Virus record (IMG/VR): IMGVR_UViG_3300037325_000203
Direction: 5' to 3' (one strand)
DNA length: 64,000 bases
Source: a virus
Position 1 is the first letter of the stretch; each line of letters begins with the position of its first letter. Below the pieces are notes generated by a model. It was not told the DNA's origin. It searched no databases and saw only the letters and a list, made by a program, of their open reading frames with translations. Below are positions 16,872 through 63,711 of the stretch, in pieces. The position numbers and the translations under genes are program-made.

Positions 16872-18650
16872 TTATGTTGTTTTAGATTTATTCCAAATAT
16901 AGGCGTTTGTACCGCAGTCCCAAACCCTATCAAACCCATTGGCTTGCATGTTCTGCCATTCGGTAAGCAACGGGTCATATGTAGATGATACGTCGACAAG
17001 CTTATGTTTTTGATATTTTACACGATTCTCGAATTTTATGTAATCTTTCGTATACAAATAGGACGGCGGGCTAACATGAGAAAAATTAAATCCTATTAAT
17101 TCATACATGTTGCCGGTATTTCTCATCTTATCCGAGTAAGATATAACACTCAAAGGATTGCAGCGTTTAACAAAATTCTTAAATAGTCTAGATGCGCCGC
17201 CGACTACATTTGTAAATTGCAACGAACAGTACCTTAACAACTCGTAATCCACATTCTTGTTAAATCTAGATTTACCAAATGTCATTATTGCCGTCAGTAC
17301 ATTGTCATTGTATAGCCCTAAATTTATGGCAGACGGGCAGTTCCCCTGGATATGATTATTATTTAAAAATTCTGCTGTATTAAACTTCGACACCACAGAT
17401 AGCTCGCACTTTCGAGCATAAATTCGCAAATTTAAGCCTAGTCTCGAAGATATTCGAGACTTGATCAGCTCTTGTTTTTTTTTCCACTCATGCTCCCATA
17501 TGTGAATTAGCTCTATGCCGGCATCGGTGCATGCTTTAGTTTTTGTTAAGTGATAATTTTTGTCTTTTCCATTTAGTTCGCTATGCCAATATGACCCGTT
17601 ACACTCGACAGCAATTTTTAAGTCCGGGAGATAGATATCCAACTCCCCCGGACTAATAACTGTTTTCGTATTTAATACAATGTCGCAATCTGTAATGCCA
17701 GTAATGTAATGTTTTACACTTTGTTCAAATAACGAATTGCTGTGTTTTTTGTAAATTAATCCGTGTTTAGTAAAATATTGAGATACTGTCCTGACTGTTA
17801 CACTAAGTTCGTCTGCGATAGATGATATGCTTTTTGTGGAATTTTCGTTAGTTAACCACGTTGCAGATTGTAATTTATCAAGTGTACCGGGCTGCAATGA
17901 TATTTGCCCTGGATTCATCACCGTGTGCGTATTATATAATGTTGCCTGCATTTTACTTAACACAGCAGGCGACGATGCAGGCGATGGTCCGTCGTATCTG
18001 GATATATTTGTATTCCTTATTTGCTCTCTAATTGACGAGTCGTGCATAACGTTATCGACACCGTACTTATTTAAAATTGTCTGTTTTGATTTATTTGTGA
18101 TTTCGGTATTATGAAATACGCAACTGTTGCCGTACCGTTCATAATTTGTAGCACGAATCTTTTCTAATAACTCGGGAGAGTGCACAGCATGTTCTACGCC
18201 GTACCTGTCGAGCATTGTTTTTTTTACTTTAGCTGCTACTGCCGTTGATTTTCTGGGATTATCGACTCCATACTTAATAAGGCAGGTCTCGCGGGTAGCA
18301 GATCTGACAGATGTATCCATACGGGCGCATTTAACCGAGCAAAATCGGTTATAGCAGGACGTTTGGGATTTCCATTTAGTATTTTTACCACATGCACATG
18401 TCGGTATAGCCGATATCCCTTGCTTTATGTGCTGAAATGCTACACCTAATTTGTCTATCCCTAGTTCCCTGGCATATTCTAGGACTTCTTTGTATAACCG
18501 GACATTTGATCTAAGTAATGGCACGTTTAAAGCACCATTACTTTTCACATGTGATGGTATCAATGAATTATATAATTCAGAAATTGTCCCATCCATCGAC
18601 CGCCTCGCTCCTAGAATATTCTGTAACTTTAGTTTCGAAAAAGTTTTCAC
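16872..18650 (-). mobile_element. Putative homing endonuclease: KYGV repeats + Vsr-like nuclease + Mom-like GNAT C-terminus
   Basis: KYGVDNP repeats; ELDIYLP..AVECNGSYWH..IHIWE; IYARKC..H.QG..MTFG..ELLR..GASRL..SYSD..WDCG. Overlaps nrdB 3' end; start may be 18596. Confidence 0.75.
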
Positions 18651-19593
18651 GTTTTTCGGAATTTAAATATTCATACGGGTTTTTGGAAAACCCCTTATAT
18701 ACCACACCCAGGCCTAATATTTTAGTTCTTTGATTTACAAGGTATTTAATATACCCTTCTGTACTTTCCTGCGAAATCCCAAGAATTCTGTCTCCATAAA
18801 TTTCCTTACCCCATTCTATTTCTTGCTCAGCAGCCGCCATAAGATTATCAAGTATGATTTTTCTATCATCTTCATTATTCATGTCGAATACTTCTCGAAT
18901 AATGTTTGCAAAAAAGTTTACATGGGTTACCTCATCATTCTCGATATATTTGATCATCTTTGCAACATTAGCAACTTTGTTTCTAGAGGCTAGCTGATAG
19001 AAGAACTGAAACCCATTATAGAAATAAATCCCTTCTAATGCATAATCTGCTGCAATGGCATTCTTATAGTTAGCTAACGACTTGTCGTTACTAAATTTCT
19101 GAAACTGGCCGGCAATAAACTTGTTACGCTTCAGCAGCATAGGATTATTGCGCCAGTAGTTGTAAATTTCTTCGCGCTCTGTGTTAGGAAATAATTCCTG
19201 TAATAGATACTGATACGACTGAGAGTGAATCAGTTCCTGGAATGCCTGTATAGTAAACAACGCACTTACTTCCGGAGCAGTAATATAGTCCGAAATATTA
19301 GGAAGGTTTGCTACTTGCATACTATCTAGTGCAATCAGAAATGAAAGTGTATTCTTAAATGCTTCCATTTCGTCTTTTGTAAGTTCCTTAATAGTAACTT
19401 TGTCGTCTACTAGAGAAACTTTTTCCGGTATCCAAAAATTGTTCACCATGATCTTATATAACTTGGTTGCCCATACATACTTAACACTATTCAGGTTAAG
19501 TATGCCAGTGGCCGAGCCATTGATCATTTGTCTAGCTGTCGGTGAGTCATCACCGAACTCGTTGAAAATAGTTTTATGTGTTAGTTCGTTCAT
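18577..19593 (-). CDS. nrdB: Ribonucleotide reductase class Ia beta subunit
   Basis: FWIPE, LDS, QELIHSQSY (radical Tyr), LEGIYFYNGF, DEVTH, NFFE. Confidence 0.95.
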   Translation of the reverse strand: MNELTHKTIFNEFGDDSPTARQMINGSATGILNLNSVKYVWATKLYKIMVNNFWIPEKVSLVDDKVTIKELTKDEMEAFKNTLSFLIALDSMQVANLPNISDYITAPEVSALFTIQAFQELIHSQSYQYLLQELFPNTEREEIYNYWRNNPMLLKRNKFIAGQFQKFSNDKSLANYKNAIAADYALEGIYFYNGFQFFYQLASRNKVANVAKMIKYIENDEVTHVNFFANIIREVFDMNNEDDRKIILDNLMAAAEQEIEWGKEIYGDRILGISQESTEGYIKYLVNQRTKILGLGVVYKGFSKNPYEYLNSEKRENFFETKVTEYSRSEAVDGWDNF

Positions 19594-20236
19594 GCTTTTT
19601 CTTCCCGTATATAAACCCGTCCGGCATTTCGCGTCCGGGCTTTAATTTTGTTATTATCTGACCATTTGTAATCCATTTCCCGCGATCAGGAAATGGGGCC
19701 ATTCCCTCGACCCATCCGATCGGAATTGTATCTTCTAGCCTAAAATACTTGCTTTCTTTACCATTTGTAAACCATTTTGCACCGCCCATACTAGGAGTCA
19801 AACCGCCTCGTAGAATATGATTTCTTTCTGGAAATCTACGCATTGGGTTATTATCCCCACTCATCGCTACAGAAATCTTCTTCTTTGCAGCATCCTTGTG
19901 CATTGGATTTCCTACATCTTTCATCCGAATTGAACAATTTCTAGACATTGCAATCTTAGCACGCTCGTATTGCCTGGAAGATATTCTTCTGTCATTTTTC
20001 TTATTTTCGGTAGCCATCCAGAAAAATGCATTTGATATCTTCCAGTTATTTGGATAAAGTTTATACAATAACCAATGTGCCAAATAATGTTCTTTTGCAG
20101 TTAAAGAAGTTAAATTATTTTCTGTATCAACGCCATTCATGCATCTTGGAATAATGTGATGCTTTTCAAAATAATCTAATTTTCTGCCTTTCTTACCCCT
20201 CAAACAAATTGTATCATATATCTTTTTATAGTCCAT
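19574..20236 (-). mobile_element. HNH homing endonuclease, MobE-like, between nrdA and nrdB
   Basis: EKHHIIPRC.NG...NL..LTAKEH..AH; NPM and W.TNG repeats; same position as T4 mobE. Confidence 0.88.
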
Positions 20237-20280
20237 ATTACCCCGCGCATTATAAACTATTTATCTATGTGCGGGATAAT
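20237..20280 (-). promoter_or_regulatory. RBS-sequestering hairpin with late promoter in its loop
   Basis: ATTATCCCGCACAT pairs with ATGCGCGGGGTAAT (13 of 14 pairs); GATAAATA in loop; directly before the HNH ATG. Confidence 0.8.
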
Positions 20281-20783
20281 CAGCCACTACACGCGACACA
20301 ATTTTCTTCCTCTGTTTTAATCACAGAATCAATTGTAGCATTGGCTTTAATTGTTCTAATATAGTAAATTGACTTGATTCCTTTACGATGTGCGTAATGT
20401 ATTGCATCGTATAATTGCTTTGCTGTAAAACTCTCATTACGTTGATCGAATATTAACTCCATAGAGCACCCTGTATCAATAAATTTCTGCAATTCGGAAA
20501 CGACATCGATAATTTCTGTTGCCGTATGCTTTGGAAATGTTTTACCGTATGCAATAGGATTATCTTTAAGAAATTTTGCAACAACTACAAGTTTACCATT
20601 CTTGTTATCTTCTGAAAAGAAGGAATCATAAACAGGTAAGATACTTGCACTAGAGTCCATATAGATCGAAGTACTTGTATTATGACTTACTATGCCATTT
20701 CCCATAAAATACGCATGAGAAGATGGAACTTCAAAATCTGCTGTCGGAATAGTCATTCCTTTTTCTATTTTTTTAATTTTCAT
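20280..20783 (-). CDS. nrdA: Split intein C-half (35 aa) + NrdA C-terminal extein
   Basis: MKIKKIEK...DFEVPSSHAYFMGNGIVSHN|TSTS; extein has QKFID..S, SIYY and terminal CVAC. Confidence 0.93.
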   Translation of the reverse strand: MKIKKIEKGMTIPTADFEVPSSHAYFMGNGIVSHNTSTSIYMDSSASILPVYDSFFSEDNKNGKLVVVAKFLKDNPIAYGKTFPKHTATEIIDVVSELQKFIDTGCSMELIFDQRNESFTAKQLYDAIHYAHRKGIKSIYYIRTIKANATIDSVIKTEEENCVACSG

Positions 20784-22023
20784 TTATAAAATTCCCCAGT
20801 TTATTAAATATGTATTGTTCTTGCATGGGTAAACTAAGCACTTCCCACACATGAATTATGTCGAATCCGTTCTTTACTGCTATGTCACGTTTTAGCTCAT
20901 CGTTATTATATTGTTCATCGGCCGATTTACCAAAGGGTGTTCTCCATGTTGTCCATTCTGCGTCAGATAATCCGAGCTTGTACGGGTGCCAAACTTTTCC
21001 GTTATATTCTACAATTAATTTCATAGACGGTATGCAAAAATCATACAACTTCGGTAATTTAGATTTATCATTGTATAACATTAATTCCTCGCTATCACCT
21101 ACACCCCATTTTATATCATTTCTATTAATGCCATGCCTTCTTAGGTATTTGTATATAGGTAATAAAAATTTAAATGCTGCTTTGGACGATTTATGCCGTT
21201 TTGTTCTATTAAATCCTGCTCTTGCAAATATTATTTCTCTTGCTCTCTCAATTCCGTGTGTTTTAGCCAACGATTCAAATTTACCACTCTCAGATCGTTT
21301 TAAATTAATATTATTATATTCGTCTAACGTATTATTGAATACATGACCGGCGCGTGATGAGGAAAATGAATTTCTATCATTCTTACTGTTGTATAACTTC
21401 GTGCCTTGTTCTTTACCGAATTTTTCTACATAGTATTCCAGTGTATTACTATAAGATACCCTATCACAAAACTGTTTATATTTTACCGGGCCATCACTTA
21501 CACCGTACCTTCTTGTGAATGACGGCAGATTGCCCGCAGTTTCAGTCTTAATCTTTGCTATCTTTTCTACAGCAGTCTCTACTGAATACCCCAAATTAAT
21601 CCATGTACTTATGTCATACGAATTAGGTGGTTTATTTTTGCACTTTGCCTGCGCAATCGGCGCATCCTCGTCAAAGTAATCATTGAAGAATAATGATGTA
21701 TTACATTCGTGGTTGCCTTGTCGTTTAAAGAATAAAGCATTAACCCATGCACGAGATATGCGCAATGTATTCATGCCATATTTAATATATATTTTAAAAA
21801 TAGTTGCAAGGTTGTATGATGTGTATTCATTGTGATATAAACCCATGAATAAATCTCGGGCTTGAGATTCTATGTAAGTAGACAGTATTATACCACGTGC
21901 ATTTAAATATCCACTCAGAGATTCTAATTTTTCAAAAGAAAAATTAGAATCTCTCCTGACACATTTTAAAAAATTAGACCCCGAAATTTTATATATCTTA
22001 TTATCGTATTTTACAACTGACAT
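20773..22023 (-). mobile_element. Free-standing Vsr/DUF559-like endonuclease between the nrdA halves
   Basis: RYG..G repeats; LYDFCIP...IVEYNGKVWH...K...A..NGF....VWE. Confidence 0.8.
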
Positions 22024-22042
22024 GCCCGGCTTCCAATACTTG

Positions 22043-24214
22043 TCAGTTATTTATCATATTTATGTCGACTATTTCCATCTCTTCCGTCATATTTTCCACT
22101 TTAATCCATTGGTTGCCGTCATTTGTTTTAACCAATAGCATATGATTGGGTGTGAATGAATATGTAATCCCGTCCTCGAATGTAATATCTGTGGTCTCTT
22201 GTATTCCGTTCCACCAAATTCTTTCAACAAATTCAGTGTCGCCTTTCGGTGTGTTAACTTCGACAGGTAATTTTAATTCTATCCAATGCTGTGGCAACTC
22301 TATCAACTCGTGTATCTTCAAACCATCATTCTCTAATATCTGTCTAATGGTTGTTAGTCCAGCAATAGTCATTACCTTGTCGTCTAACGAATGGCAATTT
22401 GGAGCAGGGCTTGTTAATTGACTATTACGCATACCATGTACATCTATCTCGGACTGTAATGCTTTCCAGTCATACTTACCGGAAGCATGTTCTGCAAACT
22501 GGCTAATTCGATTTCCGTTTTTCCACTCAGAAGATTCGAACGCACCAAACGACCCGAATCTCTTAGATAACTCTATACTGGATAACACTGCATGATATTC
22601 CACGCACTCTGCAATTTGCCTAATATAGTCTAGGTCTCTGAAATTCATGTACTCCCTGGCAAGGTGGTCGTGCAAACCTTGCAAGCCAATGCCAATTGTT
22701 CTATATCTGTTGTTATGAGCGTGAGTTACAAGATCAGGTGCGCTAGTCAGGCTGATGCCATAATCCAATATACGTGTTGTTAATTCAGAAACTTTACCTA
22801 ATTCTTTAAAATCTTTAATGTTGCCTAATACAATAGAAGCTAGATTACAAACATGGCCTAACTCGTCCGGTTTAACATTAGAAAAGGACTCTGTGCATAA
22901 ATTTACACAAGGAATACCGATGTGACCGTTAGTATCTCCCTTATTCGGATTATACTCGTTGATGGTGTCAGTGAATGCAATGTATGGTAGACCAGTTTCG
23001 AACTGTATACGCATTATAATTTTCATCAGATCACGGGCATTATCGAATTTTCGAGTTACGATTAGTTTACCTTCCTTGGCAGCTGATTCAATTTTAAGGT
23101 ATGCTTCTGTAAATGCAGAACCATACATTCCGCGAACATCAATACCTAATTTTTTCTTAACCTCATACGGGCAAAAGGTATGCCATTCTCCCCTGTTAAG
23201 ATCTCTTTCCATGAAAATGTCTGGAATTGTAACCTGGGGAAACACGTCGTATGCCTTCATTCTCGGGTCACCGTGTTCTGTTTGCATATCCAAGAAGTCA
23301 AGCACATCATTATGCCAGATAGGAAGTGCTATAGTTCCTGCACCAGCCCGCTTACCACCCTGATTAACTGCAACTAACGTATCATTGAGAATTTTGACCC
23401 ACTGAACAACTGTTCCTGCTGCATTCTGATAACCATTTACATCTGCGCCCTTGGCTCGGAGATATCCTAGGAATAAACCTATGCCGCCCCCGTTCTTAGA
23501 AATTAATGCAACACGCTTGATATTATCAAAAATACTGTCTATATCGTCTTCTATAGCAATAATAAAACAAGATGCAACGTTTCCTCCCTTTCTAAGATTA
23601 GATAGGAAAGGTGTTGCTAAAGAAATCTTACGCAGAGAAAGCGCATTATATACTTCCTTTACGAATTTTAACCTAGTCTCTACTGGTTCTAATTGACCGA
23701 ATCGCATTGCATTGACCATATGCATATGTTGATTTAGTTCATGCTTACCTAAATATTTTTTCTTTGCAGTAATGAGACTTGCATAACTATGATCCAAGTC
23801 TCGATTCATTTTAATCGACGAACTTAGCTCCTCTATATCTACGTCTGTATAGAACTCTAAAAGTTCCGATGAGTAATGTCTATTCTTAACATTATAATGA
23901 ACCACTTCTTTAAAGGACTTTCCGCGAAGTGTAAAGTTTGCCCATTCATCCATCGCTAGTGCGCGGCCAGCGACATTCACCCAGTCCGGTGCCGAAGGCG
24001 AAGCAAGCTGTATTGCGTGCTGAATTACATTCAGTTGAATATCACGCGTCTTTATACCTGGCTTTAGAAACTGATCAAACTTGGATTCAAGTTCTAAAGG
24101 ATTAACATCCTGTCCTTCTGCTGCCATTTGTATAGATTTCTTAATCTTAGAAACATCATAAGGCTCTTTCGTACCGTCACGTTTCTCTACCATTATTTCT
24201 CTAACTGTTGCCAT
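22043..24214 (-). CDS. nrdA: NrdA N-terminal extein + split intein N-half (117 aa)
   Basis: ATP-cone VEKRDG, SCF, NLCTE, CNL; ...SPAPN|CHSLDDKV...FTPNH (block B) then stop. Confidence 0.95.
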   Translation of the reverse strand: MATVREIMVEKRDGTKEPYDVSKIKKSIQMAAEGQDVNPLELESKFDQFLKPGIKTRDIQLNVIQHAIQLASPSAPDWVNVAGRALAMDEWANFTLRGKSFKEVVHYNVKNRHYSSELLEFYTDVDIEELSSSIKMNRDLDHSYASLITAKKKYLGKHELNQHMHMVNAMRFGQLEPVETRLKFVKEVYNALSLRKISLATPFLSNLRKGGNVASCFIIAIEDDIDSIFDNIKRVALISKNGGGIGLFLGYLRAKGADVNGYQNAAGTVVQWVKILNDTLVAVNQGGKRAGAGTIALPIWHNDVLDFLDMQTEHGDPRMKAYDVFPQVTIPDIFMERDLNRGEWHTFCPYEVKKKLGIDVRGMYGSAFTEAYLKIESAAKEGKLIVTRKFDNARDLMKIIMRIQFETGLPYIAFTDTINEYNPNKGDTNGHIGIPCVNLCTESFSNVKPDELGHVCNLASIVLGNIKDFKELGKVSELTTRILDYGISLTSAPDLVTHAHNNRYRTIGIGLQGLHDHLAREYMNFRDLDYIRQIAECVEYHAVLSSIELSKRFGSFGAFESSEWKNGNRISQFAEHASGKYDWKALQSEIDVHGMRNSQLTSPAPNCHSLDDKVMTIAGLTTIRQILENDGLKIHELIELPQHWIELKLPVEVNTPKGDTEFVERIWWNGIQETTDITFEDGITYSFTPNHMLLVKTNDGNQWIKVENMTEEMEIVDINMINN

Positions 24215-24227
24215 GTACCTGTTCTCT

Positions 24228-24665
24228 CTATGTTATTACTTTTATTTCATTCCTCGAAAATCTTCTTAGAATCTCGACACTACCTTGTATCTCCGGGTAC
24301 ATATTTACCTTGCCTAATTCGTAATTCAAAATATATCGATTACCAATGATGGGCAAAAGAAATATCCCATCTACGTCTTGTACCAAAATCAAGTCAATAT
24401 CGACATATTCCGTTGACATAGCTATGGTATAGAACATGAGTATGCTTATGGAACTTGTGCAGAATAATCCGTGATGCAGGATCTCCCAAGGAGTGGGCCA
24501 GTCTTTTGGACTATAGTAATCGACGGATCTAGAACCGAATGGTATATGGGCGCAAAATTTGGCAACTTCTTCTAGCTGTTCTTGTTGCTCCATAGCCTGT
24601 ATAGATATTCTAAGCTTTTTCCAAAGATTAAGACGCTCGGCGTCGGGTATAGATGCCCAAATCAT
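24228..24665 (-). CDS. Conserved hypothetical protein
   Basis: WPTPWEIL..G.FC motif; directly upstream of nrdA. Confidence 0.7.
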   Translation of the reverse strand: MIWASIPDAERLNLWKKLRISIQAMEQQEQLEEVAKFCAHIPFGSRSVDYYSPKDWPTPWEILHHGLFCTSSISILMFYTIAMSTEYVDIDLILVQDVDGIFLLPIIGNRYILNYELGKVNMYPEIQGSVEILRRFSRNEIKVIT

Positions 24666-24725
24666 TCTGTTTTAATTTTGTTAGAGTAGGTAGGAAAGTA
24701 TGTCATGTATTTGTATGTGATGTAT

Positions 24726-25391: not shown

Positions 25392-25397
25392 TGGCTA

Positions 25398-25426
25398 AGT
25401 ATAACAGAAAGAGTATCCATAGTCAA
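25398..25426 (-). promoter_or_regulatory. sigma70 promoter with extended -10, probably leaderless
   Basis: TTGACT-N17-TATACT with TGn, 6 nt before ATG 25391. Confidence 0.75.
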
Positions 25427-25430
25427 AATC

Positions 25431-26855: not shown

Positions 26856-26859
26856 TTTT

Positions 26860-41128: not shown

Positions 41129-41500
41129 ATGATTAATTCGCAAGATATCCAGATAAAATTTCCCTTTTTAACCGGGTTAAAGTCTTATACCCAAGAATAT
41201 ATAGGTATTATTCAGAATTCCGATGACAAAATCATTAGTTTTTACGATTACGAGTCTATAAGAACATCGGCGGAAAAAATAGTATTTCTAGAACACGGGG
41301 AAACATGGTGGTGGGAGAGTAATAGATTATTACCTATTAACATATTTTTGCAAGGGCAGATGATACCGTTTCGTTACTGTCTAAAAACAGTAGTAAATAA
41401 AGATATCGAAATAATGTTTGGCTCAGTTACAAGTCTAAATAATATTATGAAAAAACGCATTAAAAAGCGTCAAATTCAACTAATACGTAAGTCTGACTAA
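41129..41500 (+). CDS. Conserved hypothetical protein
   Basis: FPFLT...YIGIIQN...WWWESNR..PI..FL; TATAAATA 7 nt upstream. Confidence 0.75.
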   Translation: MINSQDIQIKFPFLTGLKSYTQEYIGIIQNSDDKIISFYDYESIRTSAEKIVFLEHGETWWWESNRLLPINIFLQGQMIPFRYCLKTVVNKDIEIMFGSVTSLNNIMKKRIKKRQIQLIRKSD

Positions 41501-43143
41501 GGTAGTACGGGTCTAGTCCAGGCCCATACATCGACCCCGCAATCCCATATTCTGTCATATCCATGATCTTGCATATTCTCCCATTCGGTGCGGCCAGGGT
41601 TGAAATTATCTAGTAATTTAGATAGTTTATGCTTTTGATATTTCATTCTATTTTCAAAAGATTTATAATTATTTGTATAATAGTAAGATGGTGGAGAAGT
41701 AGATATAAATTCGAATCCCAAATTACCATAAACTGCCCCACTTCCGTACTGTTTGTCGGAATAGCTAATAACATTCTCTGGATTAACAGTCTTAATAAAA
41801 TGTTTAAATAATTTACTCGCTCCGCCTATCACAGTTGTGCCGAGTATTGTGGAAAATCTAAGAAGTTCCCATTTATATGCAGAATTAAATCGTGGCTTTC
41901 CAAATGTCATAACAGAATACAGCGTATCGCCAATATATAGCCCGATTTCGACCGATGAGCCGCAGTCACCCTGCAGATGAGAGTATTCTAAAAATTTAAC
42001 TTTGTCCGACTTAGACACTGGACGTATTTCACACTTCCTTGCGTAGATTTTTTTAGAACAATTAAACTTATTCGAAATTCTAGATTTAATTATATCCTTC
42101 TTTGTATTCCACAGATGTTCCCAAACAAAGAACACATCTATCCCTCTTTCCTTACATGCGTTCAGTTTATCGATATGATACTTGTTTCCTCGATTATTTA
42201 ATTCACTATGCCAATACGACCCATTAACCTCTATGGCAAATAAGATGTCATCGAAATAAATATCTAATTCTTTCGGTGATATAATCTTACGTGTATCTGT
42301 TTGCATAGATAAAATATTAGATAAACTTAGAGATTTTATATATTCGATGACCTCTTGCTGAATGCTAGATTTGAATGTAATCTGTATATTAAACTGCTTA
42401 ATTCTCGATCGTAATGTATCAATTGATATGTCTAAGAATTTGGATAACCCGACAAGGCCGTAACGAGTTAATAGTAATATTAATTCTTGCTCATTATCTA
42501 TAGCAGCTCGTACTGCGGATGGTATAAGCGATAATTGAAAACTTGTTGCTCCATACTTTTCGACACATGTATCCCTGATCTTGGACTTAGTTGATTCGAG
42601 TAAGTGGGTTGATCTAATTTTCTCAATTATTGAATCTGCCTTGGATGCAATCTCATTACCATATCTAGCCTTGCATGTTTCCCTTATTTTTAATTCAATC
42701 TCTTTACATAAGATAGGGTGTTCAACGCCATACCGTTCTAATAACGTTTTTCGTCTCAATTCTCTTATCAAATAATCAGACTGTGGATTGCCGTTATAGT
42801 TTTTCTCCCATGTGTTAGTTTGTTTGCTCTTTAACTCGCTATTCTGGCACGCAAAAGGCACTCCATACTTTTCTATCATAGATGCTTGCTGCCTGGCCCT
42901 GACTTCTGCTAGTTTAAATGGGTTAGATACCCCATATTTTTTAATATTACTATCGGTACGAGTATTAATAATGTCTATACTTTTACTTGGGTTATCGACA
43001 CCATACTTCTTTATGTTAGTGGCTTTTCGTTTAATGATTGTATTTTTAGAATTATGTCTGGACCTGCACGACATTGAGCAGAAATCAGACTGCTTACCGT
43101 GTTTTGTTATTATCGCATCTGCATCACAATTAAGACATTTCAT
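41497..43143 (-). mobile_element. Putative homing endonuclease: Zn finger + KYGV repeats + Vsr-like nuclease + Mom-like GNAT
   Basis: Paralog of 16872..18650: ELDIYF..AIEVNGSYWH; IYARKC..HLQG..MTFG..ELLR..GASKL..SYSD..WDCG. Confidence 0.75.
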
Positions 43144-43183: not shown

Positions 43184-43771
43184 TTAATCTTTTTCCATTC
43201 TTTCTATCAGAAGATTAAGGTTTACTACGATGGCGATTGCATACGCAATTCCGTGACCTCTTTTAAATTGATAGCTGGACATAACTTCCTTTTCCCATAC
43301 CTTCTTTTGTATTTCTTCCCATGGGGAGTTTTTTAAATAGGACTTCGACGGACGAATAATTGCAAGTATCATAGCTAGGTCTTCTACCGATGTAGGTTTG
43401 TACCTGACAAGTAGGTCGCTGTGCCCCTTCAAATGAAACAATTGATCAGTAACCTCCTGATATAGGAAGAAATCCCACGGAGGTTCCCTGTCTATAAGAC
43501 GAAGCAGATGGTCCTCGTTTTCTATCCCTGAGTACATGTTTACATTGAGAAAGTCTATCTTAAAATATCCATACTCGTTTGCAATTCTGTGATCTAATGT
43601 AGATGTATTCGTGACGGGATCTCTAGGAATATTCTGAAAATATACACCAGTTGGGTGCTTCTCGAATTTGTCGTTTGGACGATCTATCCTGCCATATATA
43701 CACTCCATACTGTCCAGTATCTTATCTCTGCCGAATACGTCTATGTCTACATCAGTTGCTACTTTTTTCAA
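43184..43771 (-). CDS. dnaE: Minimal DNA polymerase III alpha (DnaE)-like catalytic fragment
   Basis: DVDID, KHPTGVY, YFKIDFL, LAIIRP, YQFKRGHGIAYA. Confidence 0.8.
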   Translation of the reverse strand: MKKVATDVDIDVFGRDKILDSMECIYGRIDRPNDKFEKHPTGVYFQNIPRDPVTNTSTLDHRIANEYGYFKIDFLNVNMYSGIENEDHLLRLIDREPPWDFFLYQEVTDQLFHLKGHSDLLVRYKPTSVEDLAMILAIIRPSKSYLKNSPWEEIQKKVWEKEVMSSYQFKRGHGIAYAIAIVVNLNLLIERMEKD

Positions 43772-51028: not shown

Positions 51029-51037
51029 GGTTAAGGA

Positions 51038-52172: not shown

Positions 52173-52201
52173 ATTTTACGAAATTTTTATAACTTTGTCA
52201 A
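52173..52201 (-). promoter_or_regulatory. sigma70 promoter for gene 32
   Basis: TTGACA-N17-TAAAAT. Confidence 0.75.
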
Positions 52202-52208
52202 GGACTTC

Positions 52209-53693: not shown

Positions 53694-53741
53694 TTATATT
53701 TCCCTTTTCATTATTTATCTATTTATCAAACAATTGCTGTG

Positions 53742-54827: not shown

Positions 54828-55872
54828 ATCTTAATATCTCATATTCTGTTAGTGTCTTAAATAACCATACTTCGTATTTATGCCCCTTAGATAAGACTGC
54901 ATCTTTCTTTTTAAGATTATTGATTAATCTCGACTTATAGATATCCTTTAGGTCGCCATTGCCATCCCACCAATACTGTGCCTTAACCTCGATGATTCGA
55001 TTTTCTGCTGGAATAAAAATATCAGGATAATATTTTAATAGTTTTCTGTCATTTGTTACATATTCGAATATAGGTAATTCATATTTTTCAAGTGAATTAT
55101 GTATGATTAAGTCGGTCTCGACATACCCTTGATTAAATAATGAATCTAATACTTTATTTTCATATCCTCGTATGTGAACTATCTTTCCGGACGGTAATAT
55201 ATAATCCTTACCTATTGCGTTAGACTGACGTGACTTCTTAATTGCCTCTGGTATAAGAAATGTACAACTCACGCCAAATTTTTCTATATTTGTCAATCGA
55301 CGGATCTGATTTATCTCATTCTGTTCTTCTATAGTTTTATTTCTATTTGTTTCTGCAGATTTCTGCCACCCTGCATAATATTCGTTTCCGTATTTTCTTA
55401 GCTTTGTAGCTCTTGATTTATTTTTATTATTAGTCGATTGAGTGGAATGTACGACCCCAAATTTTACTAAATTCGTGTCTTTTCTTTTTTTAATAATCTC
55501 ATTATATTCATCGTCTGTGCGCTGTGAGACTGCAAATTTTTTATTTGCTTTATCACTCTCTTGCTGTTCTTTAGACCATCGAGATTTAGTAGCATGTACT
55601 TCTTTTCCTACACATGCCGTACTACCGCATGTCTTGCCATAGGTGTGATCCTTTTGGTAGAATGTCTTAGGAGAATTGCAGTGCAGACACTGCTCCTTAG
55701 TACCTGTTATGTATTTTTCGTAATATTGTTGATACGAAATATTATTATTTCGTAAATGCCTAGTGAATTGCCCATTAGACTTACAATACCGCACATTGTC
55801 AATTATTGATGTAATATAGGTTGCTTCACTCATTATGATTTCGATTAAATAGTTATTTTCCAAACTATTCAT
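54817..55872 (-). mobile_element. Free-standing PD-(D/E)XK endonuclease between the terminase halves
   Basis: CxxC motifs, KFGV/KYG repeats, RGYE, YYPDIFI....IIEVK; start may be 55833. Confidence 0.8.
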
Positions 55873-55875
55873 CTC

Positions 55876-56793
55876 TTAGCCTAACATACCGAATAGGTCT
55901 CCGATTGTTATGTCGAATTTTTCAGTATTTTTATCCGATATTTGTAAGAGTGTTGTTTGCGCGCAACACTTATGCTCACGAAGGAAACGGTCCTCGCCTA
56001 AGGACGCGAGCTGTTCATCTGCCCAACTTTCGTCTCTGTCAGGATGAGCTTCCCACGTAGCCATATACGGCTTAAATCCATTAGTGCCCGTGACTGTTTC
56101 GTTGCCATTATTATCCACTAGCTTGTTGGCGTTGAACCAAATGTCGGCGAACTGGTCTTCATCGGTATTCGGCGTTGATGTGATTATGCACTTACCGCCC
56201 GTCGATAGTGTCGGTGCCAATGAAGTCCAGAATTCTTTTGCAATGTTTGCATCGACGAAAGCGAACTCATCCAGATAGATTAACGATAACGCCATTCCTC
56301 GACCTGTGTTTTGTGTAGTCGTTGTTGCCGTGATTTTAGAACCGTTGTCGAACACAATGGAGCGTTTGTTATATGTCGTTACTCCTGCTCGTATATGGTC
56401 TGGTACAGATTCATACGCATAGCGAACCCTGTCCATGATATCCTGTGCAGAGTCGTACTTGTAGGATGTTACTAATATCTGTGAATCATCGGTGAACATT
56501 GCGTACCATAGGAGATACCCTGCGGCAACAGCAGTCTTGCCCATCTGCCTACTTACCATATTCACTGATTTTTTGAAGTGAGTATATGAATCAATTAAAT
56601 CTAATTGAAAATCGTATGGTGAAAATTTTTGTTTTCCCCGGGTCGAGTGCTGCACATACATGAAGTTGGAAACAAAATACAAAGGACCCGTGTCGGGATC
56701 CATACATGCAGCGAGCTGGTCTATCTGCTCCTTTGTATAGGATACCTTTGTATACGCACGCTTAACTAACTTATCGTCTTGATATATTGCCAC
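55876..56793 (-). CDS. gp17: Terminase large subunit ATPase extein + short split intein N-half (30 aa)
   Basis: YDFQ, SRQMGKT, GRG, LDEFAF, STPN, FLREHK|CCAQTTLLQI...ITIGDLF. Confidence 0.93.
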   Translation of the reverse strand: MAIYQDDKLVKRAYTKVSYTKEQIDQLAACMDPDTGPLYFVSNFMYVQHSTRGKQKFSPYDFQLDLIDSYTHFKKSVNMVSRQMGKTAVAAGYLLWYAMFTDDSQILVTSYKYDSAQDIMDRVRYAYESVPDHIRAGVTTYNKRSIVFDNGSKITATTTTQNTGRGMALSLIYLDEFAFVDANIAKEFWTSLAPTLSTGGKCIITSTPNTDEDQFADIWFNANKLVDNNGNETVTGTNGFKPYMATWEAHPDRDESWADEQLASLGEDRFLREHKCCAQTTLLQISDKNTEKFDITIGDLFGMLG

Positions 56794-56796
56794 ATT

Positions 56797-58050
56797 TTAG
56801 TACCGGTTATCGTCTCTGTCGCTGTAGTCTCTGTCGGGCTCCGACGGAGGTATACCCTCCGCTTCTTTGTCAAACAAGGGCCCGAGCACCCCTGCATACG
56901 TTAACGGATGCAGAAGTTGCTTTATAACCGCCGGGTCTATAACTTTTATAGCATCATTAACCGAATACTCTTTCCCGTTGATGCCAATGGCATCTACATC
57001 GGGGGAAAACGCAACCGAGCTAACAGTCACATCACCTGCTACTGAATATAACTGTGTTGTATAAGTTTCGCTGTCTGTGCGGTGATTCCATCCAGTAGGA
57101 CTTTCGTCAGACTCCGTAGATACATCGCAAGATGCAGAAATATCCAGAAGATACCGTAGGTTAACCGGATTTCCTTGTCGATCTGCCACTGTTGCGCTAA
57201 ATCCCATCCAGCCGGTATAACTGATGTCTGACGATGAGGTTTTAAAATCATCGTACATGTCGACAATCTTTACTTCAGATATTTGTCGGCTCTCATTTAT
57301 TTTTTTTTTAGAAACTGCAGACTCGTTTAGGTATTTCCTATAAGCATACACCAACTCTGTATGAGTTTCTGCAACTTGCATTTTTTTCTGCTCTGGATTA
57401 TCGCCATGGCGGGCACCCGACGGACCGACTGCTTTTACTACAGGGCCGTCTGCTCCGTTTGGGAAGTAGTCATTTCCGTCTAATTCTTTTACATCGTTGT
57501 AGCCATTTTGGATATCTTCCTCGAACGATCTCTCGTCTCCCGAGTACCCGCGATCTATCCAGCCAGTGTCATTACCCGAGACATTATCTGGTTCATCATT
57601 CGGGAAAAAATCTCTCTCTAAATTTGATAAGATTTCCTCAATTTCTACGTCGTCGAGCCCTTGTTCGGACATCTCTCTTTTCACAGTATCAAAGGCTTCT
57701 TTGATGCCAACGAAATTAGAAATTAACATAGAAAACCTTGAATGTTGTTGCTGATAATTCAACTCTGTCATTTCATCCATTTCTCTCCTGGGCGTGTGTC
57801 CTCCCAGAGCTTTACTTATTCCTTTAGCTCTTTTATCTCTATTAAATGCATGTTTCTTTCGATCGTCGGCAGTCATTGCATTGCGTGCCCCCATTTCTTG
57901 GTGGCTATGGTCTGACATAGCTTTAGACATGTAGTTGCCTTTCATTCTAGAACTAATTTCGTTAAGTTCGGTCTCTACGTTCTGTGAACTGATGCCGGGT
58001 ACAGCAACAACACCTTCCATAAGATTTATTAGTTTACGCATATTACTCAT
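56797..58050 (-). CDS. Acidic head-associated protein with protease-like xE sites
   Basis: Start moved to MSNMRKLINLME; LNE/INE repeats. Confidence 0.6.
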   Translation of the reverse strand: MSNMRKLINLMEGVVAVPGISSQNVETELNEISSRMKGNYMSKAMSDHSHQEMGARNAMTADDRKKHAFNRDKRAKGISKALGGHTPRREMDEMTELNYQQQHSRFSMLISNFVGIKEAFDTVKREMSEQGLDDVEIEEILSNLERDFFPNDEPDNVSGNDTGWIDRGYSGDERSFEEDIQNGYNDVKELDGNDYFPNGADGPVVKAVGPSGARHGDNPEQKKMQVAETHTELVYAYRKYLNESAVSKKKINESRQISEVKIVDMYDDFKTSSSDISYTGWMGFSATVADRQGNPVNLRYLLDISASCDVSTESDESPTGWNHRTDSETYTTQLYSVAGDVTVSSVAFSPDVDAIGINGKEYSVNDAIKVIDPAVIKQLLHPLTYAGVLGPLFDKEAEGIPPSEPDRDYSDRDDNRY

Positions 58051-58063
58051 AGTACACCTGATT

Positions 58064-58711
58064 TTAAAATTTAGATTTCTTAATTCTGCCAAAAAATCCT
58101 ACATCATCCGATTTTAGGTTCTTTGGGCTATTAAATTCGTCGTAGCCACTTGGCAAAGTCGAATGATTTTCTGTTGATTCGGGACTTAGTGGATTAATAA
58201 CTACTGTTCTAGCACGTTCTTTACTAACTTTCTCAAGTTCTTTTAGAAAGTCGGTATTGTGTTCGGCTCCGTATGCCGGGACCTCAGTGGGATCTGGGTC
58301 ACTCCCCAGTCGAGCTTTGTATTTGGTTTTGTACTCTTCCGAGTTCCTGTCCAAGTACAAATCAGTTTCTATCTGCCTTGGATCGTTTTCGGAATATACT
58401 GCCAGGTTTGCTGGAGAAATTCCTAATGTGTTACAAATGTATGTTCTAAGGAAATCCAACGAACCTGGATAGCCTAACACTAAGTCGCAGATATAAACTG
58501 CTGTATTCTTAACATTAGGAAAGTCCAGCGGACTTTCCTGGATTGGGGTTTTCCTGAATGAAGATGCGGATTTTAGATCGTACTTCTTAAGACTTTGTTC
58601 AAGATGATCTATCATGACGTCCGACATCTCATTTACTGCAAATTTCAAGACGTACTTATAGTCTGCGTTGTTCTCTGCAACGTAATTTGAAAAAGATTTA
58701 GTATCTGCCAT
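58064..58711 (-). CDS. Conserved hypothetical late protein
   Basis: TPIQESPLDFPN motif; GGAG RBS; late promoter at 58735. Confidence 0.7.
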   Translation of the reverse strand: MADTKSFSNYVAENNADYKYVLKFAVNEMSDVMIDHLEQSLKKYDLKSASSFRKTPIQESPLDFPNVKNTAVYICDLVLGYPGSLDFLRTYICNTLGISPANLAVYSENDPRQIETDLYLDRNSEEYKTKYKARLGSDPDPTEVPAYGAEHNTDFLKELEKVSKERARTVVINPLSPESTENHSTLPSGYDEFNSPKNLKSDDVGFFGRIKKSKF

Positions 58712-58733
58712 TATAATAACTCCGGTGTTATTA

Positions 58734-59240
58734 CTATTTATCAGATGTTTCCGTTTTTGCAGATACAATGTATTTCAACAGTTCATTCCGGTCGAAATCG
58801 CCGCCATTGGCATTTTTTCTATCTCCATTACCCTGATCTAAGTCGATTTGTTCTGATCTGACCTTCTTTAGCTGAAGTTCTATCATTCTAAGTTTTCGGT
58901 CAGTTTTTGAATTCTTTGCATCTAACGCTGTCTTTAGCATCTGTCCTGCTACTTCGTATATTTTCCCAGCGTGCATATCCGGTACATTACCACCCAGGGA
59001 TATAAGGTCATTGAATGTGTTAATTGCCTTAGTAGCAATACTATCCATTTCTGTGTCGTGAGATTCTAACCCCAACACTACCGGGAGTGCAGAATCCACT
59101 TTTTCCGCAGTCGTCAACGACGAGTACACTTGTTGAGCCTCGGCAAGAACTTCTGATCTAGTCTTAATGTGTACTTCCATATCATCTTCGTTCACACTAG
59201 TAGGTGGCAAATTGAAAAAGTCTTCTAATTTTTTTGTCAA
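58734..59240 (-). CDS. gp16: Terminase small subunit (gp16-like)
   Basis: Helical, IYEVA..MLK, DRNELL; near terL; TTG start. Confidence 0.6.
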   Translation of the reverse strand: MTKKLEDFFNLPPTSVNEDDMEVHIKTRSEVLAEAQQVYSSLTTAEKVDSALPVVLGLESHDTEMDSIATKAINTFNDLISLGGNVPDMHAGKIYEVAGQMLKTALDAKNSKTDRKLRMIELQLKKVRSEQIDLDQGNGDRKNANGGDFDRNELLKYIVSAKTETSDK

Positions 59241-59245
59241 GCTGT

Positions 59246-59683
59246 CTATCCCTTCCCTTTTGGATTATTGAATATATTATTCTCTGTCATTACCCGAAAC
59301 GTCATCCCATGACTCTTAGCAAATGCTTGCGCTGCCGCCCATTTGAAGGTATTCAATGCGACCGCTGCCTTAGCTCGTTGACTCTTGGCTTGTTCCAAGA
59401 AAGTTTCTTTAGCTGGCTTTACTTCGATAATCTCTGCTCTCTGATTACCTTTAGCATCCACATAAGTTACTACAAAATCAGGTACATACACAGTGTATTT
59501 ACCAGTGAAGGGATTCTGGTAAGGGATTTTAATTGGCTCGCTTGCCCAGGAAGAAATATTAGGATTTGTATCAAATAGTACCATAACCTTATGTTCCCAT
59601 GACGATCGGAAAACAATAGGATATGTGCCTGCATACTTACTTGGGTTTATAGGCTTATAATGACCTTGGACATAAGATCTCAT
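59246..59683 (-). CDS. gp4: Head completion nuclease (gp4-like)
   Basis: P.NP.KY.G, FRSSWE, WASE, YVPDF, EVKP, KW.AA. Confidence 0.9.
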   Translation of the reverse strand: MRSYVQGHYKPINPSKYAGTYPIVFRSSWEHKVMVLFDTNPNISSWASEPIKIPYQNPFTGKYTVYVPDFVVTYVDAKGNQRAEIIEVKPAKETFLEQAKSQRAKAAVALNTFKWAAAQAFAKSHGMTFRVMTENNIFNNPKGKG

Positions 59684-60153
59684 ACACGTATTTGCCTTGC
59701 CTGCAAACTATGCTTATTACTCACCGAAGTAACAGTGCCTACTTGGCTTCCCGGGTCTCTAAGATTGTTGAATGCCCTATATGCATTGTCACTGAACGCT
59801 AACTGTCCGGTGGTCGGAAGTGCTTCCAATAGTGCTTGCGTGGATACGCCAATTTGTGCAGCAATGTCAGTAGATAACGCGGACATGGTATCCGCATACA
59901 GAGGACCGGTGCCCCTTGATAAAAAATAGCATTTAGCAGAATCAAATGATGCAGCAGAGTAGTTACCTACGACGCCGCCACCTAAATCAGATTGTAGAAA
60001 AGACCCTGCGCTGGGGAATACAGTGCCTCCTGCAGAATACTTAAACGTGTTAGTCGGTGTCCCGTTAACTGTCTTTACAGTCTTTTGCGTACCCAGATAT
60101 GTAAGCATCTGAGAACTAAATCTGCCTATAGTTGCTATGGTAGGATTAGCCAC
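59680..60153 (-). CDS. Hypothetical virion protein
   Basis: Overlapping start and stop within the late operon. Confidence 0.6.
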   Translation of the reverse strand: MANPTIATIGRFSSQMLTYLGTQKTVKTVNGTPTNTFKYSAGGTVFPSAGSFLQSDLGGGVVGNYSAASFDSAKCYFLSRGTGPLYADTMSALSTDIAAQIGVSTQALLEALPTTGQLAFSDNAYRAFNNLRDPGSQVGTVTSVSNKHSLQARQIRV

Positions 60154-61414
60154 CCGAATTTCCTCCTGTTCGATTCACATCAGTGTAGGCCGATGGGGTT
60201 CTTGCTGCGGCAAACTTAAACGGTCTTGTCTGTAATACAGCAGTCTTTGTGGGATGATAGGGGGTTGGACTAATATTTGCCAGCCCGTTTAGTGCACTTG
60301 CACTTACCCTTCTTACTATCTTGTCAGATGCAAAGGCGCCGGTAACATCCCCTATACTAGATTGAACATTCTTTCCTATTCTTTGCAAAATAGGATTATC
60401 GGATTGTAATAAAGGATTATTAGACTCGATGAAATCTAGCAGTGATACATTAAATGCCAATGAGGGTAGTTCTAAGAACTCTCCGTGTTCGAACGGCTCC
60501 GTAGAAGAAGTATTCTGGGGATTACTTGCACCGCTACCCAATTCTAAATTCTGAACAGTGTAGTATGCATACTCATATTCAAACGTAAACGTAAGTTCCA
60601 ATGTTTTATCTGTGGTTGCATAATTTAGTACATCATGGCTAAAAGCCGCTATTCTAGGATTCACAAGTGTTACCTGATTAAATCTTCCAGCGTGTACCTG
60701 ATATATGTCTATGGTTTGAATAAGATTTCGTTCGTTCTGCACCTGTGGTAAGTTAAAACCGAAATTATGGTTGATCAGTGCGTCGGCAACAATATTCTGT
60801 GTATCTTGTTTGCTCCCGTCTGTGTTGGCCAGCGGCGGTACCGATGGATTTGTCCCTTGAAACAAATTTCTAATACTAGATGGTAAATTAGCAATATTAG
60901 GATTAATTGAAGGTGCAAATTGTCTCTTAAAGCTTTCTACCGAGAATGTACCTGGTGCACCGGTAGATGACTTTGCAGCATTTCGACCGGGCTCAGTGCC
61001 ATCGGCAAAATAATATCGATAATACATTTCCCAAAACTTCAAAGTCTTGCCATCGGCCACATCATGGAATACCATTTTTATCGGTTCAAACTCTATTTTA
61101 GTCTGGCTTATTCTTTTTCTGTTGTATTGGTTAAGAGCCTCAGTTTCTATCTTAAAGGACGGCATTTCTACAGACTTAATCAAGGGCGCAATCTGATCCC
61201 ATGTAGCAGAATTAAAGAATGTATTATAAAATTTACCTGCTGTTTCCGACTTATTTAACGATATGTTAACATAATATTGAAACGGGAATCTAGGCTGGTT
61301 CCTGTATAAGGACTGACCTTCCTGATTGAAGTGGTGACTAGCGTGGCGCGGACTTTTATTATAATAAAATCCCGCGCCTGTAAGCGACGTAAAAATGCTC
61401 GAAAAGCTAGCCAT
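60146..61414 (-). CDS. Tail-tube-like / tube initiator protein
   Basis: K.VEMP....E..NQYNRK....I.F.PI...FHD tube-fold pattern. Confidence 0.7.
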   Translation of the reverse strand: MASFSSIFTSLTGAGFYYNKSPRHASHHFNQEGQSLYRNQPRFPFQYYVNISLNKSETAGKFYNTFFNSATWDQIAPLIKSVEMPSFKIETEALNQYNRKRISQTKIEFEPIKMVFHDVADGKTLKFWEMYYRYYFADGTEPGRNAAKSSTGAPGTFSVESFKRQFAPSINPNIANLPSSIRNLFQGTNPSVPPLANTDGSKQDTQNIVADALINHNFGFNLPQVQNERNLIQTIDIYQVHAGRFNQVTLVNPRIAAFSHDVLNYATTDKTLELTFTFEYEYAYYTVQNLELGSGASNPQNTSSTEPFEHGEFLELPSLAFNVSLLDFIESNNPLLQSDNPILQRIGKNVQSSIGDVTGAFASDKIVRRVSASALNGLANISPTPYHPTKTAVLQTRPFKFAAARTPSAYTDVNRTGGNSGG

Positions 61415-61436
61415 CTATTACCCCGATAATCTCTCG

Positions 61437-62051
61437 TCACCCGAAAGTAGTACCACCAGTCGGGCTGGCAATATTGGGATATGGATTTCCGCCCACTGTT
61501 GTTCCATCGTTTGTATTCGGGCCGGCAATGTTTGTTGCATTGTCGAAACGAATCGTCAATGTTACCATGACAGGCTCGCCTTCCTTATAGTCGTGATCAC
61601 CATAAGAGACAGTCTTAATGAAACACCCACTTAGAACCCATGATTCTAGTTGGTCATTGTCTGTACCATCTAATGTATGAATTTCCATTGCAAACTTGTA
61701 ATTAATACCCGCAACAGCACTTGTCTGTTCAAAGTGGTTCATTTGTTTTTGTATCTGGGCGCCGACTGACGACACAACCGAGTTCGTAATATCATCTCGA
61801 AGTGTAATTTCTATTGGGTCGAACGTATGCTTACCCATTATCCACGCAATAGAGTTGTATGAATGCAACTCTACTTCAGAGTGATCAACTTTCGGTCTCT
61901 GACAAGTTACTACGTTAGCAGTCATCTCGCGCAGGCCGTTGTTTTCGCCAAAGTTTTGCCAGACCACTCTAAAGCGATATTTTTGCTTTGGGTGAAGTAT
62001 ACCGAGCTTGGCGCCGTCTAAGGGTACGCCGAATTTAGCTAAATTTGCCAT
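61437..62051 (-). CDS. gp19: Tail tube protein (gp19-like)
   Basis: PK.KYRFRV, GKH.F.PI...RDD, W...GC, T..FDNA; AGGAG RBS; late promoter at 62079. Confidence 0.88.
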   Translation of the reverse strand: MANLAKFGVPLDGAKLGILHPKQKYRFRVVWQNFGENNGLREMTANVVTCQRPKVDHSEVELHSYNSIAWIMGKHTFDPIEITLRDDITNSVVSSVGAQIQKQMNHFEQTSAVAGINYKFAMEIHTLDGTDNDQLESWVLSGCFIKTVSYGDHDYKEGEPVMVTLTIRFDNATNIAGPNTNDGTTVGGNPYPNIASPTGGTTFG

Positions 62052-62100
62052 CTTTTTCTCCTGCTTTTAAGCTAATACTATTTATCAATTTGACATATTT

Positions 62101-63711
62101 TTATTTCAACCGATTAGGAATCCATTCCCACTTGGATGACCCCGAGTCCCATATAGTCTTATATCCTTGCAATAGTCTGTTTTCCCTTTCCGTAAGAAGC
62201 ATATCATCATCCGGTGTCTTCCTTAGCGAGAATCGATGTATTCTCGCTATAATATTATCTTTTATATACCAGTATCCAGGTACAGTATTCTTAACAAAGT
62301 TAAACCCTAATATGCTATAGAGATTACCGTTGGACCAGCGTCTGTCTGCATATGTTACAATAGATGTGGGAGAATTATTAGATATGAAATATTTAAATAA
62401 TTTAGAGGCACCGCCTGGTATATTATAGTTTGCGGAGCAGAATCTATTTAATTCCCAAGATAAAACTTTTCTAGAAATGTTATTTTTAGAAAATGTCATA
62501 ACAGATATCAGCTCCTTATTAAAAAACAGGCCAAGTCGCAAATTACTACGACCAGCCCCTTGAAGGTGATATCTGTTGCAAAATACTGAGGCCTGGGATG
62601 AACTAATTTCTTCGACCACACAGCGTCTTGCATACACTGTTGCTGATTTATTTTGTTTAATCAGTTGAAGTAATCTAGATTCGACTACTTCTCTCTTATT
62701 TTTCCATTCATCCTCAAAGATTTGTATAAGCCGTATTCCAGTACCCTCTACATCTCTAAGCTTATCCATGTCCTTTGTCTTCGAGTAGCCATTAGCGGAC
62801 AGCACCTGCTCTGAGTGCCAATACAATCCATTGTACTCTATGCCCGTATTCAGTGAAGGTATGAATATATCTAATTCTTTTTTACCATCGTATCTGTAGT
62901 TCGGAATGGCAGTGACATGTGAACTTATGAAGTCAAATATTTCTATCTCCGCAGCACTCCTGTTTACAATAGGGGGATAACATGTTAGACAAAGTCGATC
63001 TTTTATTTTGTTTGGCTGAAACATTTGCTTTGTGTATGATACGTCATTTCCACACTTGTTACATGTTGCAGTGAGATAATTACCATCTACATTCCCCGGG
63101 GTAAACCCTAGATCTACTAATCTAGCCTTCATTAACTCTAGACTTTTTTTCTGCTTCATTTCCCCTATTATCTTAGATTTTATGGAAATTTTCTCTCGTG
63201 TCTCATCCGTATGTTTTTTACCTCTGAAGAATGCAAGGTCATGCCCATTTTTTAGCTTTGTCTCCAATGCTTTTTTTGCACGTAAAGAAACCTCGTCCCT
63301 GTTGTTGGAAGCATAGTCGGAAACAGATGCCGATATTTTCTGCCGTGTGGCGTCTGATACAATTTGAGTTGGTCTGGTCAATACGCCTGTGGCATATCTT
63401 TCCTCTCTGAGGCGAGCCGATTCTACATACGCAGTTGTGTCTTCCAGGGTCTTGCCTGTGTTCCACGTGACATTCCCCGTATTTGCCACGGATATCAATC
63501 TTTTAGATTCGACTGACATTTTATTCCCGTAGTTGGGATTATTTTTACCAGCAGATTGTGCCGACTTCGAAGTTCTGTACTCCACTGATGTCAGCGACTC
63601 CTTGCCATATTTGTTAACATATTCGGCAGTAAGAATACCGTGTTTCTTCAAATGGGTGCTGGATATGAGTTTTTCAAACTCAATATTACATATTTGGCAT
63701 CTAATAGACAT
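62101..63711 (-). mobile_element. Putative homing endonuclease: Zn finger/NUMOD3 + Vsr-like nuclease + Mom-like GNAT, between sheath and tube genes
   Basis: ELDIFIP...IEYNGLYWH..IFEDEW; VYARRC..HLQG..ELNR..GASKL..TYAD..WDSG. Confidence 0.78.

Follow-up and report, generated by a model that had tools for sequence, protein, structure and literature searches.

Three Hef-like homing endonuclease genes with a Mom-related C-terminal domain in an uncultured salt-lake phage

The window analysed here is the whole stretch of 64,000 nucleotides of viral DNA in IMG/VR record IMGVR_UViG_3300037325_000203. It comes from an uncultured salt-lake phage and carries three genes, referred to below as copies 1 to 3, whose products each join a DNA-binding N-terminal half, a Vsr-like nuclease and a C-terminal domain (C-domain) resembling Mom, the DNA-modifying enzyme of phage Mu. 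The genes and the layout of their products, with lengths and positions in amino acids (aa), are as follows.

16872..18650, minus strand: copy 1, Hef-like homing endonuclease, 592 aa counted from a GTG start; zinc-ribbon-like Cys cluster, DUF7487 repeats, helix-turn-helix (HTH), Vsr-like/EDxHD nuclease at about aa 320-400, Mom-like GNAT domain at aa 404-592.
41497..43143, minus strand: copy 2, Hef-like homing endonuclease, 548 aa; CxxC...CxxxC N-terminus, DUF7487 repeats, HTH, nuclease at aa 280-355 (residues D294, E305, N307, H312, H323 and K326), Mom-like domain at aa 362-548.
62101..63711, minus strand: copy 3, Hef-like homing endonuclease, 536 aa; C2H2-like finger, three NUMOD3 repeats, treble-clef zinc finger, nuclease, Mom-like domain at aa 354-536.

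An earlier note on this DNA had described three fusion open reading frames (ORFs), and all three are present at these coordinates on the minus strand. Copy 1, if read from the GTG at 18650, overlaps nrdB by 74 nucleotides (nt), and an ATG at 18596, 54 nt downstream of the GTG, is at least as plausible a start. A three-way alignment showed that the N-terminal halves of the copies are unrelated and that two blocks are shared, the nuclease and the C-domain, and the motifs quoted in that note for both blocks were found in all three copies. The nuclease block contains ELDI(Y/F), E.NG.YWHSE and (W/F)E(H/D)(E/L)W, and the C-domain, which is about 185 aa long, contains YAR.C, H.QG, LGL(Y/F), MTF, EL.R, GGAS(K/R)L, (S/T)Y(S/A)D, G..Y, GF.F and WD.G. 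The C-domain of copy 2 shares 49% identity with that of copy 1 and 36% with that of copy 3. The variability of the N-termini, also pointed out earlier, was borne out by the Pfam matches, which are DUF7487 repeats in copies 1 and 2 but NUMOD3 repeats and a treble-clef finger in copy 3. Sub-threshold Pfam matches were obtained to Vsr/MTES_1575 in copy 1 and, with the whole proteins, to Mom in copies 2 and 3. A six-frame scan of the window recovered full copies only at these three places, together with one nuclease-only relative at 20773-22023.

All three copies match phrog_3339, annotated as 'homing endonuclease', from end to end at E-values of 1e-91 to 1e-134, so the resemblance among them is far beyond chance. 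The tblastn search against isolate phages matched 420 records, often annotated as "Hef-like homing endonuclease" or "homing endonuclease" and in a few cases as "putative nuclease/acetyltransferase protein". The hosts of these phages include Campylobacter, Acinetobacter, Dickeya, Klebsiella, Vibrio, Pseudomonas (phage PA5oct) and others, and many phages hold several copies, with up to 12 Hef-like places per record. The closest isolate-phage gene is at most 52% identical, over the C-domain. The family is very large, comprising 18,716 clusters (50% identity) at an E-value of 1e-3 or better and 8,329 at 1e-30 or better. Taylor (2011) placed the bacteriophage Hef type homing endonucleases in the Vsr-like EDxHD family, of which I-Bth0305I is the prototype (PMC3239194). 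In the review of Edgell (2010), the hef gene of phage U5 is described as encoding a unique endonuclease that cleaves nrdB, and site-specific cleavage with homing, reported for U5 Hef only, is cited there from Sandegren (2005) (PMC2988022). The LIMEstone paper listed four Hef-like free-standing endonucleases, one of which adjoins the tail tube gene (PMC3296691). Based on these matches, we assign copies 1 to 3 to the Hef family of homing endonucleases with high confidence.

The nuclease domain is homologous to the catalytic domain of I-Bth0305I (3r3p), which was matched by a profile of 47 two-domain sequences at an E-value of 7.1e-7. In the profile alignment, D294, N307 and H312 of copy 2 fall on D196, N208 and H213 of I-Bth0305I, and H323 falls on D222; among these mapped positions of the EDxHD motif, the last Asp is a His in the Hef type (148 of 152 relatives). 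The Vsr-like character of the nuclease, claimed in the earlier note, agrees with this profile match and with the Foldseek matches of the nuclease half to Vsr (1cw0, E-value 7.5e-4; 1vsr, 1.4e-3). D294, E305, H312 and K326 are kept in 150-151 of the 152 relatives, and the nuclease residues, N307 included, are conserved in about 99%.

Each copy is inserted between genes that stand side by side in relatives. Copy 1 lies between nrdB and a phrog_527 gene, and among 53 loci, the phrog_527 gene follows nrdB within 3-150 bp in every relative carrying both genes, which represents the empty site. Copy 2 lies between a DNA polymerase piece (43184-43771) and a phrog_11637 gene; it is absent from the relatives whose locus was compared in full (L082-L084 and L087-L090), where a gap of 36 to about 190 bp is found instead. 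Copy 3 separates the tail sheath gene from the tail tube gene; these two are 128 bp apart in L012, where copy 3 is absent, and have an unrelated 229-aa ORF between them in L002. Only 4 of 80 tube loci have a Hef-like gene near the tube gene, and the positions and orientations of these differ. A recent duplication of the three copies within the genome was rejected because, over the two conserved domains, each copy is closer to proteins of other genomes (nearest kin 46-63% identical) than to its siblings in the window (34-48%). The pattern of the three genes is that of free-standing homing endonuclease genes acquired independently: sporadic insertions between conserved genes, with empty sites in relatives. 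This pattern fits homing.

The same proteins could also be read as a conflict system similar to restriction-modification, in which Mom labels numerous sites of the phage genome, and DNA without such labels, from the host or from superinfecting phages, is degraded by the nuclease. Iyer et al. (2021) described Mom domains fused to nucleases of the restriction endonuclease (REase) fold in jumbo phages and predicted this role, momylation protecting the phage DNA while the nuclease attacks other DNA (PMC7824862). The five momylating enzymes that they counted in PA5oct (PMC7824862) equal the five Hef-like places that we found there, and the occurrence of several fusion copies in many phages, up to the 12 places per record mentioned above, points the same way. 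However, the three genes occur sporadically next to conserved genes, and the corresponding sites in relatives are cleanly empty; the NUMOD3 and DUF7487 arrays are typical of homing enzymes with long sites, and U5 Hef is reported as a homing endonuclease cleaving nrdB, the gene that copy 1 also adjoins. We therefore consider a conflict system without homing very unlikely for these genes.

The C-domain is a true member or a sister of the Mom family of GNAT enzymes. The earlier note had suggested a resemblance to Mu Mom and a GNAT fold from the order of the motifs, and modelling followed by a structure search upheld this. The AlphaFold2 model of the C-domain, built with an alignment of 42 sequences, has a predicted local distance difference test (pLDDT) score of 96, and its top Foldseek matches in the PDB were two chains of Mu Mom S124A (8bv8, E-value 2.2e-7), with generic GNATs next. 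VIA-align superimposed Mom and the C-domain over 148 residues with 18% identity and a Z of 13.4, the longest alignment and the highest identity among the GNATs tied on Z (about 13). The C-domain of copy 2 alone scored 28.7 bits against Pfam Mom (PF25680), for which the cut-off is 27.1; with whole proteins, copy 2 (24.3) and copy 3 (17.5) stayed below the cut-off, and copy 1 had no match to this family. Among the 42 relatives, 27 match Pfam Mom at an E-value below 0.01, and phrog_1384, 'Mom-like DNA modification protein', matched at 9e-8. No Mom match was found in sequence searches of the PDB with copy 2 or with a profile of the three C-domains, so the link between the C-domain and Mom needed the Pfam and PHROG profiles and the fold. 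The identity to Mu Mom is only 14-18%, and hhalign of the C-domain alignment against the single Mu Mom sequence was weak (E-value 0.052) and served only to map residues. In the predicted model, about 45 residues (aa 122-168 of the domain) form a helical insertion between late core strands; in Mom, an HTH-like insertion at residues 175-209 is needed for activity. The complex prediction for two copies of the C-domain gave a score of 0.01 against a mark of 0.42, which is no evidence either way on a homodimer. Taken as a whole, membership of the C-domain in the Mom family is well supported, and we regard it as highly probable.

Nuclease and C-domain are predicted to form one rigid body because the model of the two together (294 aa) has a pLDDT of 95 and a predicted template modelling score (pTM) of 0.90. 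In isolate phages, queries with the nuclease only and with the C-domain only found 1011 and 1014 places, respectively, in nearly identical sets of hosts, and the fusion is therefore near-obligate. Among the best 150 metagenomic representatives, the domain stands at the C-terminus, and the median protein length is about 545 aa. One contig departs from this arrangement: in L144 (694-2101), a DUF7487/HTH ORF is followed 13 nt later by a 209-aa ORF holding the Mom-like domain only, the nuclease apparently having been deleted. The contig is short and of low coverage, and this could be a decayed copy or an assembly error. The stand-alone C-domain proteins among the matches (P0016 and P0127) lie on short, low-coverage contigs and are too weak to build on.

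The residues needed for Mom activity were taken from Silva et al. (2026) (PMC13219725), who solved the structure of Mom and reported glycyl-tRNA(Gly) as its donor. The register came from the hhalign alignment with Mu Mom, and conservation was counted among 157 close relatives, as listed below.

Mom W48: domain F23, kept in 157/157, present in all three copies.
Mom H58: near domain H28, kept in 156/157, present in all three copies.
Mom R111: domain R68 (EL.R motif), kept in 157/157, present in all three copies.
Mom S124: domain S82, kept in 136/157 (87%), present in all three copies.
Mom D149: domain D102, kept in 138/157 (88%), present in all three copies.
Mom R151: domain position 104, kept in 103/157 (66%); Met in copy 1, Gln in copy 2, Arg in copy 3.
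Mom Y159: domain Y111, kept in 157/157, present in all three copies.

According to Karambelkar et al. (2020), who number it R101 (R111 in Silva et al.), the EL.R Arg is a conserved feature of Mom homologues that other GNATs do not share, and its invariance in the relatives therefore ties the C-domain specifically to Mom. The full set of Mom His, Arg, Ser, Asp, Arg and Tyr is found, among the three copies, in copy 3 only. The view in the earlier note that the C-domain had no experimental characterisation also stands, as Silva et al. assayed only stand-alone Mom proteins. That note had proposed to look for binding of acetyl-coenzyme A (acetyl-CoA) and iron, a check that is now outdated because Mom is reported to use glycyl-tRNA(Gly) (PMC13219725).

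The explanation that we favour overall, with slightly better than even confidence, is that copies 1 to 3 are free-standing Hef-type homing endonuclease genes with a Mom-family domain that may well still be enzymatic. In a related phage without the insert, the N-terminal module (zinc ribbon, DUF7487 or NUMOD3 repeats, HTH) would recognise an extended site within or next to a conserved neighbouring gene, and the Vsr-like EDxHD-type domain would cut the bound recipient DNA. Recombinational repair from the carrier genome would then copy the endonuclease gene and its flanks into the recipient. The C-domain, predicted to pack rigidly on the nuclease, may modify a base of the DNA bound by its own polypeptide (by analogy, N6 of adenine) with an acyl or aminoacyl group, and the modified carrier site or the repaired site might thereby become refractory to the nuclease.

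Several observations weigh against this explanation. We infer homing of the three copies from the insertion pattern, and the target sites are putative; in the contigs of three salt-lake metagenomes, the surroundings of copy 1 are unchanged, and no variant without copy 1 or its mobile neighbours was found. The kinship to U5 Hef appears from annotations and from Taylor (2011), and the profile of Silva et al. was built only from sequences holding the Mom domain alone (PMC13219725). Modification alone cannot distinguish carrier from recipient DNA in a co-infected cell, and self-immunity therefore needs cis-preferential action or differences between the sites. As for the catalytic residues, the equivalents of the Mom-essential Ser, Asp and R151 are less conserved (87%, 88% and 66%) than the nuclease residues (about 99%), and Ser, Asp and the second Arg are jointly kept in only 84 of the 157 relatives. 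Copies 1 and 2 have lost the R151 equivalent, with Met or Gln at that position and a Lys one residue before it.

These substitutions bear on the alternative that the Mom-like domain is non-catalytic, a structural or DNA-recognition module that, for example, grips or flips a base near the cut, so that the genes only cut. The replacement of Ser, Asp and the second Arg in 13%, 12% and 34% of the relatives is in line with such a role, as are the missing Arg of copies 1 and 2, given that R151A abolishes Mom activity (PMC13219725), and the predicted rigid packing on the nuclease. On the other hand, no relative departs from the Mom-specific Arg or the Tyr and only one from the His, and all three copies keep Ser and Asp; some 60 C-domain positions show conservation of at least 75%, and a domain serving purely as a scaffold would not usually need so many. 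We consider a purely non-catalytic domain to be the main alternative, though rather unlikely. That the C-domain is an active DNA modifier in these three copies has, in our estimate, a little less than an even chance, and judging from the aligned residues, catalysis may not extend to every member of the family, copies 1 and 2 in particular.

A more specific possibility within the preferred explanation, that of homing endonucleases with an enzymatic Mom-family domain, is that the domain actively marks the enzyme's own recognition site and so provides epigenetic immunity in one polypeptide, possibly with acyl-CoA as the donor. At the start of helix 3, the Hef type has a Gly-Gly-Ala-Ser loop where Mom has Asn-Ser-Glu-Ser124, and this loop appears to resemble the phosphate-binding loop of CoA-using GNATs; acyl-CoA rather than a charged tRNA may be the donor because of this replacement. 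We hold such self-marking to be unlikely. A further alternative is that the domain acts on a substrate other than DNA, for example a charged tRNA, like the GNAT toxins TacT and AtaT, or a protein, which would give a host-manipulating or addiction function. GNATs that handle tRNA do exist, Mom itself binds Gly-tRNA (PMC13219725), and the acceptor is not readable from the fold. But the nearest family by both sequence and structure is Mom, a DNA modifier, and the order in which the domain is joined to DNA-binding and DNA-cutting modules is constant, which makes this alternative most improbable.

The surroundings of the three copies hold further features, two of which are listed here.

20773..22023, minus strand: related 416-aa Vsr-like/EDxHD nuclease gene lacking a Mom domain, flanked by the halves of an nrdA with a split intein.
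63725..63798, minus strand: spacer separating the stop of the sheath gene from the start of copy 3, with the hairpin AATAGTGAC...GTCACTATT, then a T-run, then AGGA 8 nt before the ATG.

From its letters, the spacer looks like a terminator followed by copy 3's own ribosome-binding site. The ribonucleotide reductase locus beside copy 1 contains three different mobile nuclease genes plus copy 1. Its nrdA (20280-24214, minus strand) is a 'fractured gene' with a split intein, in which three ORFs lie in three different frames. The N-terminal nrdA ORF (22043-24214) encodes extein aa 1-609 and then an Int-N beginning with CHSLDDKV and including TPNH, which Pfam Intein_splicing matches weakly; the C-terminal ORF (20280-20783) opens with an Int-C of 35 aa whose last residues are GIVSHN, and Thr comes next. 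An uninterrupted nrdA is present in about 50 relatives. Between the C-terminal nrdA ORF and nrdB lies an HNH homing endonuclease gene with NUMOD3 (phrog_655; 19574-20236, minus strand), which is present in few relatives (L096, L116 and L124). In the salt-lake run X2, single contigs at low depth match the window up to 20775 or from 22219 and are unlike it beyond these points, and the sequence between the split-intein halves may differ in a co-occurring strain. Beside copy 2, the 195-aa ORF at 43184-43771 (minus strand) matches the short phrog_11778 'DNA polymerase' (197 aa) and positions 583-679 of phrog_405, a long polymerase family, and the coding sequence of the polymerase may be split into pieces. 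Downstream of the tail tube gene, L002 (6664-7572) and L012 (6664-7578) encode an endonuclease of 302-304 aa, and several relatives are similar. This endonuclease has DUF7487-type N-terminal repeats (phrog_3339 positions 72-185) and a different nuclease (phrog_15137), without a Mom domain; the DNA-binding module seems to have been shuffled between nuclease types.

The role of the Mom-like half is a real question and is not specific to this window. A very large family is routinely annotated just as "homing endonuclease", yet all its members carry a domain that is well conserved and related to an enzyme of DNA hypermodification. Were the domain active, site-specific adenine acylation tied to gene mobility would occur in thousands of phage genomes, and these proteins would naturally combine a programmable DNA binder with a nuclease and a base modifier. 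Should the self-marking of recognition sites prove true, it would represent a new and very widespread class of site-specific DNA hypermodification in phages.

Among the known systems, Hef of phage U5 and the Hef-like genes share the full-length architecture of the three copies (phrog_3339) and are likewise free-standing, with conserved genes such as nrdB and the tail tube gene as neighbours. Examples are F-LimIII, VII, VIII and X of Dickeya phage LIMEstone1 and genes in Campylobacter, Acinetobacter and Klebsiella phages and in Pseudomonas phage PA5oct. I-Bth0305I has a homologous nuclease and, in common with the Hef type, NUMOD-type DNA-binding repeats N-terminal of it; however, it ends at the nuclease, without a Mom domain, and the last Asp of its EDxHD motif corresponds to H323 of the Hef type. 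Mu Mom shares with the C-domain the GNAT fold, probably a late helical insertion, the EL.R Arg and the Ser, Asp and Tyr equivalents, but it is a stand-alone dimeric enzyme of 241 aa that modifies adenine N6 in double-stranded DNA after replication and uses Gly-tRNA(Gly), whereas the domain described here is fused to a nuclease and the second Arg is absent from two of the three copies. The design of the fusion gene and the cut-and-protect idea, which the earlier note had put forward as a possible one-polypeptide restriction-modification or self-immunising homing element, are already in print, and the three genes are not a new kind. Indeed, the Mom-REase fusions of Iyer et al. have the same domain fusion and have been given the same reading of protecting self and cutting others. 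Iyer et al. interpreted them as restriction-like conflict systems, without the Hef homing label, whereas the insertion pattern in this phage favours homing.

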